64,000 nt of DNA from Lingula anatina (GCA_051362555.1 CM120640.1:15314001-15378000), one strand, 5' to 3'; numbered from the stretch's first letter, positions 10,459 to 17,846 are shown. The notes: generated from the letters alone by a model not told the origin. Translations and numbers: made by a program.

Positions 10459-10495
<37 letters not shown>

Positions 10496-10873
10496 TATAT
10501 ATAATAAAAGAAAAAGAAGAACAGCAACTTTCTTGCCCCGACCGGTTTCTTTCTTTCTTCAGGGGGTTTTGTTTATTTGTTACTAGGTGATGTCATAAAG
10601 GCTTAAATGTGACGTCTTTAACAATGAGTGTTTAATTGTTACTTTTACCAATGCTTTTATCTATTCAATGTAGGTTTATACTTATTAATGAATAGATTTT
10701 CTTTTATTTCCCTTTCTGTTTGGGTTGTTTCCCTGGTGAATTTATAAAATGGGAATACCGTAAAATCCTTGTTTTTGTTCATAGAGCATTCCCTAATGTG
10801 CCCACTCACAGACGTGCACTGATATTTAGGTTGTCTTATTTGTTGTCTGTGAACGGTCATTCTATGTCGGAGA
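10496..10873 (-). repeat. Inverted pseudo-LTR (antisense copy of the element 3' end 13428-13805)
   Basis: About 375 bp, apparently identical by eye. The minus ORF 10657-11001 reproduces the C-terminus LRHRMTVHRQ...YKPTLNR. Confidence 0.95.
10536..10566 (-). ncRNA. Second copy of the minimal hammerhead ribozyme, in the inverted pseudo-LTR
   Basis: CCCCGACCGGTTTCTTTCTTTCTTCAGGGGG is the exact reverse complement of 13735-13765. Confidence 0.72.
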
Positions 10874-11374
10874 AATGTCGATCGAGAAATGAGACAATTT
10901 CTGCAAGAAAATTCAAAGAATAACACCCTGGACACCCTCAATAAATTATGGCAAGAGGAATGCCTTGCAGAAGAGCAAAAATCGATAAACAGATGGCTCA
11001 AAACAGAAGGATGGTTAGAGAACTATCAAATGAAATTTCAAGAAATGTTCAAAGGAAAAAACCCCTTCTTTAAAATAAGGGACTCAACACCTAGCAAACA
11101 CAAAATCTTTCACCGACAAAGTAAATATCAAAAGGTAGCGATACAGAATCAAACTTATCCAGATGCATCTAGAAGACCTTTTTATCAGGCTGAACAAAAC
11201 AGCGTGCATGGGAGACAACAATATAATCCAACTTCCTTTATACCATATCACCCCAGCACGAACAAAGGAAACCGACAAATCCAATCAACAGTGAGACCAA
11301 ACCGACAAAAAGGCCATTTTTTAGGGAATGGTCAAGGGAAACCAGCCAGGAAAAAACGCTCGACTCAACAATAA
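10874..11374 (+). CDS. Upstream ORF (ORF1) of the Penelope-like element, probably 5'-truncated; helical N-part and basic Q/R/K-rich C-part
   Basis: Frame is open from the inversion junction at 10874 (ATG at 10889) to TAA at 11372-11374. It ends KPARKKRSTQQ and overlaps the RT frame by ~150 nt. Confidence 0.6.
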   Translation, partial: NVDREMRQFLQENSKNNTLDTLNKLWQEECLAEEQKSINRWLKTEGWLENYQMKFQEMFKGKNPFFKIRDSTPSKHKIFHRQSKYQKVAIQNQTYPDASRRPFYQAEQNSVHGRQQYNPTSFIPYHPSTNKGNRQIQSTVRPNRQKGHFLGNGQGKPARKKRSTQQ

Positions 11375-13644
11375 TAAATCCGAAAGTGATAAACCTATCA
11401 AAGAAAAAATTGTCACAAACTGAAATAAGTATACTAGAGAAAGGATTAAAATTCACACCCACACCCAAAAACCCCAATCATGAAGAACTTAAACAGGATA
11501 TTTCAAATTTTTGCAGACGGCTACGCTTAGCGGAGTTTTATAAAGACAAAGAAAGTACTGATGAATCGATTGTCCGCAATAAAAGTTCTTTTACACCAAA
11601 CAGAGGAAGGAATGCAGCATTAGACTTATATATAAACCATATATCAAAATTCCCAACGGATCAGATAAAAACTCAACCTGTAAAAGGAAATTTTAATAAA
11701 GAACAATGGAAAACTCTCAATACACTCAGAAATGACAATGACATAATTATCAAAGAAGCAGACAAAGGCAGTGCTGTAGTGATTATGGATACCCACACTT
11801 ATGAAAAATTATGTCTGAATATCTTAGATGACGAATCATACTATGGACAAATTACGACATATCACCCCGAAACCACTATGCACAAGTTAAACAATCTTTT
11901 AACGCTACATGGGAAAGGCCTACTAGATAAGGAACGTGACTATCTCACAAATTTTGAATACAAAGTGAGCAATTTCTATGGACTCCCTAAAATACATAAA
12001 AGCGAATGCATCAATAAAGCATGCAAGACAACAAAGTCGACCTACGTAGAAGTCAATGATACGAGTGATTTAAAAATGCGTCCAATTATAGCTGGGCCAG
12101 CATGCGAAACTCACAGACTTAGCAATTTTCTAGACATTTTATTAAAACCCTTTACGAAAGAAGTGAAAAGCTACATAAGGGACACGGTGGACTTCCTTAA
12201 CAACTTGCCAAAAAATATCAATGAAAATTCGATTCTAGTTTCCTTCGATATTACCAACATGTACTCAAACATCCCTCACGACCTGGGCATTGAGGCAATC
12301 AGCTATTGGATAGAAAGATACCCGTCACATATTCCAAAACGTATCCAAAATACCCTCATTATAGAAGGACTTAAGTTCATCTTGACAAACAATTCTTTCC
12401 ACTTCAACGGCAAACATTACCGCCAAAAAATAGGAACTGCAATGGGTACAAAAGTAGCCCCCACTTACACTACACTTGTCTTAGGATACATCGAAAAAGG
12501 CCTTTACAAAAGATGCGAAGAACGGTTTGGAGTCGAATTTAGGAATCAATTAGAAAACACATGGAAACGTTTCCTTGATGACTGTTTTATAATTTGGGAC
12601 AAAACAGAAAATGAATTGGAAGATTTCAACCTGATCCTCAACAACCTACATCCCTCTTTACATTTTACGATGGATTCAAGTTCAACACAACTCCCATTCC
12701 TCGATGTTATGGTAATGAGTGTAAAAGGAAAAATTGAGACAGATGTGTATTACAAAACAACAGACACAAAACAATATCTCCCTTTTAACTCGTGTCATCC
12801 CAGGCACATTAAGCACAACATACCATACAATCTAGCTCGAAGACTATGCACAATTGTCTCAAATGAAACCACATTAAAACAAAGGCTCAAAGAGCTGGAA
12901 GGATTCCTATTAAGGAGACAATACCCAAGACAACTGATACAAACTGGGATTAAAAAGGCAAAACAGATACCGAAGAACGACCTGAGGACCACCAAAGACA
13001 AAATTAAAATTAAAAAGGAAGCCATACCGTACATATCAACATATAATCCAAAAAATCCGGAAATACATAAGGTCATAACTGGAAACTTACCTTTGGTAAA
13101 ACAAGATGACAAAATGAATGAGATACTAACCGAAATGCAGATTATAAAGAGTAAGAGACAAAGTCCATCACTAAAGCAAATTTTAACAAAAGCAAAATTT
13201 GAAAACAATTCCAGGACATATGTGGAAACCTCAACAATACGAGTACAGAAATGTGAGGTACCCAGGTGTGGCACCTGTCCACTAATTAAAGAGGGGAGCC
13301 ATATAACATTTAAAAATGGACTTACATTCAGAATCAAACACCCATTCACCTGCACCAGCTCAAATTTAATCTATGTATTAACTTGCAGTGGATGCGGTGA
13401 GAACTATATAGGACAAACTGGAGACACTCTCCGACATAGAATGACCGTTCACAGACAACAAATAAGACAACCTAAATATCAGTGCACGTCTGTGAGTGGG
13501 CACATTAGGGAATGCTCTATGAACAAAAACAAGGATTTTACGGTATTCCCATTTTATAAATTCACCAGGGAAACAACCCAAACAGAAAGGGAAATAAAAG
13601 AAAATCTATTCATTAATAAGTATAAACCTACATTGAATAGATAA
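11227..13644 (+). CDS. Penelope-type reverse transcriptase with C-terminal GIY-YIG endonuclease
   Basis: Uninterrupted frame from 11227 (the ORF-track start at 11386 is a GTG). Motifs: VINLS, ADKGSAVVIM, FYGLPKIHK, RPII, LVSFDITNMYSNIP, GTAMGTKVAPTY, WKRFLDDCF, LPFLDV, linker CEVPRCGTC, NLIYVLTCSGCGENYIGQT...RMTVH...H...E...LN. Confidence 0.96.
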   Translation, partial: SNFLYTISPQHEQRKPTNPINSETKPTKRPFFREWSRETSQEKTLDSTIINPKVINLSKKKLSQTEISILEKGLKFTPTPKNPNHEELKQDISNFCRRLRLAEFYKDKESTDESIVRNKSSFTPNRGRNAALDLYINHISKFPTDQIKTQPVKGNFNKEQWKTLNTLRNDNDIIIKEADKGSAVVIMDTHTYEKLCLNILDDESYYGQITTYHPETTMHKLNNLLTLHGKGLLDKERDYLTNFEYKVSNFYGLPKIHKSECINKACKTTKSTYVEVNDTSDLKMRPIIAGPACETHRLSNFLDILLKPFTKEVKSYIRDTVDFLNNLPKNINENSILVSFDITNMYSNIPHDLGIEAISYWIERYPSHIPKRIQNTLIIEGLKFILTNNSFHFNGKHYRQKIGTAMGTKVAPTYTTLVLGYIEKGLYKRCEERFGVEFRNQLENTWKRFLDDCFIIWDKTENELEDFNLILNNLHPSLHFTMDSSSTQLPFLDVMVMSVKGKIETDVYYKTTDTKQYLPFNSCHPRHIKHNIPYNLARRLCTIVSNETTLKQRLKELEGFLLRRQYPRQLIQTGIKKAKQIPKNDLRTTKDKIKIKKEAIPYISTYNPKNPEIHKVITGNLPLVKQDDKMNEILTEMQIIKSKRQSPSLKQILTKAKFENNSRTYVETSTIRVQKCEVPRCGTCPLIKEGSHITFKNGLTFRIKHPFTCTSSNLIYVLTCSGCGENYIGQTGDTLRHRMTVHRQQIRQPKYQCTSVSGHIRECSMNKNKDFTVFPFYKFTRETTQTEREIKENLFINKYKPTLNR

Positions 13645-13734
13645 AAGCATTGGTAAAAGTAACAATTAAACACTCATTGTTAAAGACGTCACATTTAAGC
13701 CTTTATGACATCACCTAGTAACAAATAAACAAAA

Positions 13735-13765
13735 CCCCCTGAAGAAAGAAAGAAACCGGTCGGGG
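13735..13765 (+). ncRNA. Minimal type I hammerhead ribozyme in the 3' pseudo-LTR
   Basis: CCCC-CTGAAGA-AAGAAA-GAAA-CCGG-TC-GGGG: stem I CCCC/GGGG, CUGANGA and GAAA cores, palindromic ACCGGT stem III, GUC cleavage triplet; stem II is essentially absent. Confidence 0.75.
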
Positions 13766-13834
13766 CAAGAAAGTTGCTGTTCTTCTTTTTCTTTTATTAT
13801 ATATAATATTACTCGTACAGGAAAAACGTTTTCA

Positions 13835-13841
<7 letters not shown>

Positions 13842-13896
<55 letters not shown>
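13842..13896. repeat. (TA)n microsatellite
   Basis: Pure TA run; others at ~10460-10500, 14138-14188 and 15056-15096. Confidence 0.95.
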
Positions 13897-13900
<4 letters not shown>

Positions 13901-14135
13901 GAGAATATAGTTGATAGACTATGGAAAAATGCTCTACCCATGGTGACAGATGTGTGATGTAGCACTAACGTCACGTGTACATTTTGTACGACGTTTCACT
14001 TTGACCGTTTGTAATCAGAATCTTTTTTTTTTGTATTTTGATCTGTTTGCGCCCCTGACGAGGCCTCCGGGCCAAAACAGCTGTAGGGACTTATGTAAAT
14101 TATATTGGAGAGAACAGATTAACTTTGTTTTTTGT

Positions 14136-15455: not shown

Positions 15456-17846
15456 TTATACAGCATTATTGTTCTCCAAAATTAATTCTCTTTCTGTCTT
15501 CCCATCATCTTCACCAGAGTCCAGCCATCTAAAATAAAAGGTAAATAAACTGTTTAATTTAAAATTTAAACATCTTTAATAAAATTTTTCTAACAATGAT
15601 CAGTAAAAACAAATATACTGCGGTTAAGCGCCGCAAACAGCAATTTCAACACGTTTAAATTGAGAACTAAAATCAGGACTTCAAAATGTACCCTTGTATC
15701 CTTGGCCTCTAATATAGTCATCTAATACCTTATATAATCTGAGATATGATAATTATAACGTATAATATGTAACATGTTACATTAGCTAAGACCTAAAAAC
15801 CTGTATAGCGTGCATCAAGATTTAGAGAAAAAAACGGCTATGGGAGCATTTTTGAAAGAAAACTTCAATAACAAAATTTGTGTAAAATATCCCAAATGAA
15901 GGACATTGAAGACCAAAAGTATTATAATTATAAATGAAGTATTAAGATACTAGTCTAATGTGTGTAGCATATACCTGTTACATGGGAAAACACACTCCTG
16001 GCCATCCTCTCCCTCCTTGACGGTCACCTTTTCCAGGTACCAACCAGCCCCTGACCCCTCGCCATCATGACCTATGACCACTTTGGTCAGTTTACCGAGG
16101 CCGATTGCTTCCACATGGAAAGTATCCACCTGGAAGAGAAATGGGTAATGACATAGAAGGTCCGAGTAGCTACAGCATTTAGTTGTGTTTTATCAACTTT
16201 GTTGGAAGGATTGTATGTGTGTATGCCATTTGATTTTAGTTTTCACCCCTTGAAGCCTCAGCATGCTTTGATACTGCAACTAAACCTGCAAACATAAACA
16301 TAGTGACAGCTTCAGTAAAAATAAGCATAATAATAATTACAATAACAATTATATAAAAATTCTCACCTTTCCACTCTCAAACATGCCATCTCCCTCAATG
16401 TTCTTTCGCAAATGTCTCTTTCCTGAGTCTCCCTTCTCCCCATACAAGACAACATGGACATTGGCATCTGTCCCAGCCCCAAAGTCACTGCTGGTGTGGG
16501 TCTGCAGTATGTACTTGGTAGCTGAAATGGGTAGATATTACAATGAAGAACTTGAATTCTGCCTATAAAATTGTTTATCTGCCATACACCCCTTTTCATC
16601 AGAAATTTGATTGGCATCTATCCGATTTGTTGATGATTATAAGCAGTTCAAGTAAATATGAAAACTATTATGAAAATAATTATAAGAAGACATCTCTGTT
16701 ATAACTTAATTAGTTTAGAAACAGAATTTTAAAAAATACACGAATTCCACAAAGAGTTCTTGTACAATTTACAGATATGGCAAGCAATTTACAAATGGCA
16801 CTGTCATAGCTAATTAGGCTCACCTGTGATTGGTTCCTCTCCAGGCCAATGAGCTGGCATCTCTCTCACAGTGTCCCCATCCTCCTCTAGGGCATCCAGC
16901 CACCTGTTCACTGGGAACTCCAACTGGGTCTCATCCAACACATTATCCAGTACAATCTGTAAGGAAATAATGTCTTATCTAACTCATTCTCCAACACCAA
17001 AGAAAAAATTACAAAATGGTTTCCTGTTATGCAGTTAGAGATATGCAAGTATATTGTATTAATCCTAAGCAACCATAATGAAGTATACATATAATACTGG
17101 TTGTGCATTAAATATGTGTTGAGAAACACAGTGCTAATACTATTGCTTTATCTTACACAGATTTACTGTAATATGAAAAATCTGAAATTTAAATGGATTC
17201 ATAATGAACAGCAATGTAAAATCAACAGAAATGCTGAGTAAAAGTGAATGGCTTTATCTTTATCAATTTACAGTAATACTAGATCTTCAAGTTCCCAAGG
17301 GTCTCATACCTTTCCAACGTGCCACCCTGGTGCTGAACTGCTGTTGTCATGCTCCAGCCGCAACTTGGTGATTTTACCAACCTTCTCAGGGTCAACAAAT
17401 ATCTGAATATAGAGTAACAATTCATAATGACCTCCATTGAAGAGTGCACGGTTTTTTAAAATAAAAGGCAAGATTACATGAACAGTTTAAATTAAATTAA
17501 ATAAGAAAAATAAAAGGAGTTGACCCACCTTAAATTCATCCACCTTTCCACTCTCAAAGTGTCCTAGGCCTGGCTGTCCCAGTGGCAGAGGACCCGTGTC
17601 ACCAGTCTCTCCAAATACAGTGACAGTCACCCGGGCATCAGTGCCACTGTTCTCTATAGGACTGGTGGTTATTGTCAGTTTCCAGTCACCAGCTTAAATG
17701 TAGGAAATATAGGAGTGGGGATTTATATGTATGTATGATACATTTAATTTTGACCTCTTTTAAAATCCAATGAATAAGTAAGATGTCAATTCATCATATA
17801 GCAATGAAATGTACTTTCACATCCACAATATTGTCAATGAATTATT

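Follow-up and report, generated by a model that had tools for sequence, protein, structure and literature searches.

Penelope-like elements are described either as carrying a single ORF with an endonuclease (EN) or as carrying two ORFs without one (PMC6431247), and canonical EN+ elements are single-ORF elements according to the abstract of Craig et al. (2021; PMC8557442). The legend to Fig. 1 of the latter paper speaks of an ORF1 separable by a frameshift with a pseudoknot, so that for some Penelope-like elements an ORF1 set off by a frameshift has been published before; the legend alone does not assign it to a clade, and in the accessible part of the supplement "slippery" is absent and "ORF1" and "frameshift" occur only in the Chlamys rows. 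Esterases are known from Neptune-like elements of fish and molluscs (PMC5408684). At the HIV-1 gag-pol site the codon after U UUU UUA matters (PMC4373837), and in SARS-CoV-2 frameshifting is affected by where the zero-frame stop lies, which acts there by allowing the pseudoknot to refold (PMC8168617). The literature covered as text (figures, subscription papers and Repbase/Dfam entries lying outside this scope) holds no description or test of a -1 site in EN+ elements. For the EN-minus Athena/Terminon elements, a T6A -1 frameshift was reportedly found by Arkhipova et al. in 2017.

The window analysed here is a stretch of 64,000 nt from Lingula anatina (GCA_051362555.1 CM120640.1:15314001-15378000), and all positions are counted from its start. 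It contains a 5'-truncated copy of a Neptune-like EN+ Penelope retrotransposon with two ORFs. A left (TA)n-rich target flank (10459..10495, start approximate) is followed on the minus strand by an inverted pseudo-LTR (pLTR) copy (10496..10873), which marks the 5' truncation/inversion and over 378 nt is 100% identical to the 3' pLTR on the plus strand (13428..13805). The plus strand then carries the 3' part of ORF1 (10874..11374), encoding the end of a helical protein and a disordered tail, with its TAA stop at 11372-11374, and ORF2 (11227..13644), an open frame of 805 codons in the -1 register to ORF1. ORF2 comprises the Penelope-type N-terminal motifs VINLS (11386), GLKF (11443) and ADKG (11758), which together occupy 11386..11769 and are shared with homologues, a reverse transcriptase (RT) core (12079..12627; Pfam RVT_1, E 1e-08), a zinc-finger-like CX4CXXC linker of the Neptune/Nematis/Naiad type (13252..13278; as defined in PMC8557442) and, at its C-terminus, a GIY-YIG endonuclease carrying the CCHH residues (13366..13635; Pfam GIY-YIG, E 2.6e-05), all on the plus strand. 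A minimal hammerhead-ribozyme-like motif with CUGANGA and GAAA cores and a palindromic helix III was recognized by eye at 13735..13765 (plus strand), and its layout before ORF1 is identical in the related loci L001 and L011; the Rfam search left this motif undetected, with no match in four loci and only chance-level ones in the window. The right (TA)n target flank lies at 13841..13896.

The RT with GxKF and DKG, the GIY-YIG domain with CCHH and the inverted pLTR with the hammerhead-like motif affiliate the element with the EN+ group, although the single ORF of canonical EN+ elements is replaced by two ORFs in the -1 register. Its linker falls within the Neptune pattern CX2-5CxxC, and by eye the long spacer resembles the Neptune rather than the Nematis rows; we use the label Neptune-like because our trees were built from unnamed loci. 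Affiliation with Athena/Terminon, defined by the absence of an endonuclease and by telomeric 3' repeats, is contradicted by the GIY-YIG domain and the (TA)n flanks. Named homologues of the element are from bivalves, which taken alone would make a mollusc-like host likely. The element adjoins host exons of a cytochrome P450 gene (8787-9814, plus strand), and exons of a gene with a PLAT/LH2 domain lie at 15950-16537 (minus strand). A second hammerhead-like core (CTGACGA followed by a GAAA-like stretch, by eye) lies between two (TA)n runs just downstream, at 14040-14100, and may be what is left of a further Penelope-like pLTR.

The ORF1 frame is open from 10853 to 11374. A preliminary description had given 10874-11374 as an upstream ORF overlapping the RT frame in the -1 register; the overlap holds, but position 10874 is the junction with the inverted pLTR and not an ORF start, and ORF1 is therefore 5'-truncated in this copy. 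The remnant is matched by a profile made from 17 ORF1 relatives and excluding the window (E 1.7e-14 against a small local collection). Lacking the 5' half of ORF1, the window copy cannot yield the full protein. The contig assembled from one DNA sequencing run (X1) extends 255 letters or more beyond 10876 in the upstream direction, and the 30 letters displayed are by eye free of stops in the ORF1 frame; longer copies therefore exist.

As first described, the RT frame is open from 11227, yet its first ATG (11785) lies behind ADKG, so that all N-terminal motifs are situated 5' of it. Upstream of these motifs the ORF1 codons CAT TTT TTA GGG place the heptamer TTTTTTA (11317-11323) in perfect X_XXY_YYZ phase, again as described, with predicted entry into ORF2 at 11323. 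A relaxed slippery heptamer is expected by chance with a P of about 0.34 in the 49 in-phase positions of the overlap, and the site by itself therefore proves little. A six-T run within the overlap has a chance P of about 0.009, and this one is the only six-T run in the 2,789 coding bases of ORF1 and ORF2. Two features by which programmed -1 sites are recognized are present, namely an in-phase X_XXY_YYZ heptamer in a 0/-1 overlap and a conservation that exceeds the needs of the protein; a third, a stem-loop or pseudoknot that stimulates slipping from 5-9 nt downstream, is not evident in the window.

Contigs from all four DNA runs compared (three studies, one run possibly being the source of the window) span the site without gaps. 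Ten indels are listed between the window and these contigs, which as assemblies lose rare variants, and none falls inside 11227-11400. At 11377 and 10991 the window differs from all four runs; these are private substitutions that leave the ORF1 stop unaffected.

Conservation was assessed among 135 fetched loci, 80 of which were scored because 60 bases or more separated their RT N-terminal motif from a contig end; 18 further loci, partly repeats, were added. In quick trees (52 rows with intact RT, and 19 rows) the window groups with eight loci at an SH-aLRT of 100 (L001, L002, L007, L008, L011, L051, L079 and L140). Together with L005, whose RT is broken and which was placed by its ORF1 profile match, they form a clade of ten; L053 and L054, broken and near contig ends, were left unplaced. 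An in-phase six-T heptamer occurs in the overlap of 8/10 clade loci, as U6A in the window, L001, L002, L005, L008 and L011 and as U6G in L079 and L051, preceded by ORF1 frames that reach 434 codons and at RT identities to the window of at most about 53%. The two misfits are L140, with the non-canonical U_UAU_UUU and its own in-frame ATG, and L007, with A_AAA_AAC near a contig end and no significant ORF1 match. In the eight heptamer-bearing loci no ATG lies between the heptamer and the RT N-terminal motif, and in four of them the -1 frame opens no more than three codons from the heptamer. The Phe-Leu pair at the junction is coded T|TTT|TTR in 8/8 loci versus 2/35 other Phe-Leu pairs of the same elements (Fisher p 3e-7), and from the heptamer to the ORF1 stop the -1 frame is free of stops in all 105 codons versus a stop frequency of 8.25% just upstream (p about 1e-4), both p-values being inflated by shared ancestry, as L001 and L011 are close kin. 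In-phase U6A was also seen outside the clade in L097, and in L142/L147 a U6A directly precedes the ORF1 stop, where the RT frame is not simply -1. The locus L001:1-5354 contains a complete tandem unit (3,699 bp) composed of a hammerhead-like motif, an ORF1 of 393 aa, U6A and ORF2.

In relatives, ORF1 encodes proteins of 390-430 aa. The ORF1 profile matches 866 clusters (50% identity), and the best 150 among these were looked at. F[LF] is found within the last 35 residues in 62 of the 74 ORF1 representatives of at least 330 aa, and within the preceding 35 residues in eight. The residues K, E, Q, M and W have no U-ending codon and hence are unable to supply the first U of the heptamer; before the terminal FL they stand in only 3 of the 89 proteins with FL in their last 47 residues, some of them truncated, against a background of 21% (p 1e-6, likewise inflated by ancestry) and against 47/101 for other FL pairs, a bias that is partly one signal with the codon bias at the junction. 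The AlphaFold model of ORF1 consists of long helices and a disordered tail (pTM 0.47), the tail being rich in N, Q and R. No Pfam family is common to 20 ORF1 members, Foldseek at E 0.001 returned no match in the PDB and viral libraries, the Atlas search (best score 0.76) gave no family or fold match, and no relative was found among the viral contigs searched. By analogy, ORF1 may have a structural or RNA-binding role. Many such eukaryotic elements (L079-L135; P0023, P0050 and P0060) are filed under bacterial assemblies as host contamination.

These observations make it highly probable that the RT-endonuclease encoded by ORF2 would arise fused to the ORF1 protein, through programmed -1 frameshifting at U_UUU_UUA (11317-11323). 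On a full-length copy, ribosomes would initiate at the ORF1 AUG, and the majority would terminate at the ORF1 stop, releasing a helical protein of about 400 aa that is probably RNA-binding or oligomerising. A minority would shift back by one base and synthesize a fusion of about 1,150 aa with the junction ...GHFL-REWS..., and the slip rate would set a ratio of ORF1 protein to fusion similar to that of gag-pol. The preliminary description had already drawn the comparison with gag-pol and named what would speak against a -1 shift; so far as these conditions were examined, the reading withstood them, other copies showing no indel, the clade conserving heptamer and register, and splicing being disfavoured. 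For the ORF1 protein, no Gag similarity is detectable by Pfam or Foldseek, and the ORF1 of the window is incomplete.

The weak hairpin noted earlier downstream of the heptamer is no more stable than folds of shuffled sequence. The stretch 11324-11420 folds at -10.5 kcal/mol (z 0.09; 102 of 200 shuffles equally good), a second z-score for the window is 0.73, so that no structure is significant, and no pseudoknot is evident. Among the eight six-T loci, significant downstream folds occur in two (L002, z -2.9; L008, z -3.5) and are missing from the window and from five of the seven related loci. As the stimulator, a strong hairpin or pseudoknot close to the site is discounted; candidates are the slipperiness of U6A itself, the G-initial next codon and the place at which ORF1 stops. 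In the window the stop follows 16 zero-frame codons after the heptamer (11324..11374). Among the 89 proteins with a near-terminal Phe-Leu, the distance from this pair to the ORF1 stop is exactly ten codons in 25 and one codon in six; distances of 2-9 codons occur in only two, both truncated, and beyond ten the spread is flat. The ten-codon tails have no sequence in common and belong to several parts of the ORF1 tree, yet are clustered there. Within the clade, tails measure 12 codons in L001 and L011, 17 in L002 and 19 in L079.

Ten codons correspond approximately to the spacing of collided ribosomes. A ribosome terminating at the ORF1 stop might thus act as a roadblock that stalls the next one on the slippery codons, resulting in structure-free -1 frameshifting in a large EN+ clade, a proposal that we regard as speculative and rather doubtful. 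If true, it would couple RT synthesis to the ribosome load, and the window with its 16-codon tail would represent a relaxed or otherwise stimulated member. A single origin of the ten-codon tail with subsequent retention is another possible explanation, and the data would likewise agree with a C-terminal peptide signal of fixed length or with an RNA element that escaped recognition.

Two alternatives to frameshifting deserve discussion, each very improbable. According to the first and main one, TTTTTTAG is a 3' splice acceptor, and splicing removes the bulk of ORF1 from the mRNA, so that ORF2 is attached to an ATG-bearing exon lying upstream. Introns are known in Penelope-like elements (legend to Fig. 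1 in PMC8557442), and a G follows the heptamer in 6/6 U6A loci of the clade, where the AG phase is identical throughout, versus 6/56 exact T6A runs in the window; a G-initial codon is also compatible with the residue after the terminal F[LF] in 43/62 ORF1 relatives. In the remaining 19/62, however, this residue cannot be encoded by a codon starting with G, and L079 and L051 maintain the phase without an AG. The run consists of exactly six T preceded by purine-rich sequence and never includes C, which is unlike a pyrimidine tract. Such a tract is part of the acceptor consensus. In the stretches between the ORFs of L001 and L011, no donor or upstream in-frame ATG was found by eye. The G after U6A, i.e. 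TTTTTTAG, can equally be accounted for by the intercodon effect known from HIV-1 (PMC4373837).

The second alternative, to which we attach the same small weight, is separate translation of ORF2, by termination-reinitiation or from a near-cognate codon (ACG, AUA, GUG) in the vicinity of the ORF1 stop, the Phe-Leu pair being kept for the sake of the ORF1 protein. It finds support in the in-frame ACG and GTG of the window, the in-frame ATG of L140, the ATGA stop-start overlap of the more distant L032, L033 and L036, and the enrichment of a G-initial second codon at the predicted starts of homologues upstream of the motif (30/53 versus 19/67). In L005, L008 and L079, however, the interval from the heptamer to the motif is devoid of ATG, CTG, GTG, TTG and ACG, and separate translation leaves unexplained the 8/8 versus 2/35 codon choice, the U-ending codon before FL and the stop-free -1 frame.

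Slippage of the polymerase on the six-T run, adding a base during transcription and so fusing the frames, is less credible still: a T run is needed in either case and no RNA stimulator was found, but for transcriptional slippage neither the X_XXY_YYZ phase nor a constant spacing between run and ORF1 stop would be necessary. For such slippage six T is a short run. Finally, a single ORF split by a copy-specific or assembly indel can practically be discarded: homopolymers are prone to indels, and some more remote relatives are single-ORF elements extended at length on the N-terminal side (L014, L040, L045 and L065), but the identical arrangement in the contigs of 4/4 runs and in diverged families contradicts it, and no close homologue is fused (the best 120 RT homologues all have at most 803 aa, though fusions of up to 1,353 aa were within range, and a search for longer homologues gave, as weak evidence, 13 matches of 23-32% identity, mostly vertebrate host-gene chimeras and none of them close).

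Other Penelope-like loci differ in the coupling of ORF1 to ORF2. In a distant and well-supported group, 9/10 loci (L063, L066, L067, L068, L071, L072, L073, L075 and L078; e.g. L066:2141-2150) carry G_GGU_UUU/C 0-1 codons before the ORF1 stop, and the four that were folded have a similar small hairpin 5-9 nt downstream, none significant singly; G_GGU_UUU is also present in L085 and L055. In L032, L033 and L036 ORF1 is long (up to 695 codons) and is joined to ORF2 by the ATGA overlap, which suggests reinitiation, and the four loci with N-terminal extensions are single-ORF in appearance. The coupling mode switches among these elements.

EN+ Penelope-like elements are annotated as single-ORF elements, yet hundreds of unannotated ORF1 proteins belong to them. 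In current models, RT predictions begin at false codons and ORF1 is entered among the hypothetical proteins of the host; the gag-pol-style expression predicted here from sequence would correct such gene and transposon models. The elements also supply natural cellular -1 sites that have a conserved distance to the zero-frame stop and no evident RNA stimulator, and with which it can be tested directly how termination and queuing ribosomes bear on frameshifting.

Among the described systems, Athena/Terminon elements reportedly share with our element the two ORFs, an ORF1 (coiled-coil in their case) and a T6A -1 frameshift; they lack an endonuclease and reside at telomeres, whereas the window element encodes an endonuclease and is inserted into (TA)n. 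With the Neptune clade (PMC8557442, including the Neptune rows of Fig. S2) it has in common the order of RT and GIY-YIG with CCHH, the CX2-5CxxC linker and long spacer, the pLTRs with an inverted 5' copy, the (TA)n target and the hammerhead-like motif; it differs from canonical EN+ elements in the separate ORF1 of 400 aa in the -1 register, with no pseudoknot evident. Similar to this arrangement, a two-ORF Neptune element from Fundulus (PMC12602865) has an unannotated ORF1 before its RT-EN ORF, but there the ORFs are ATG-defined and reported as non-overlapping, and the paper does not use the term frameshift. HIV-1 gag-pol has the identical U UUU UUA followed by GGG, and in both a structural ORF precedes the RT ORF. 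The window lacks a stem-loop comparable to that of HIV-1, and its ORF1 shows no similarity to Gag by Pfam or Foldseek; the match is convergent.
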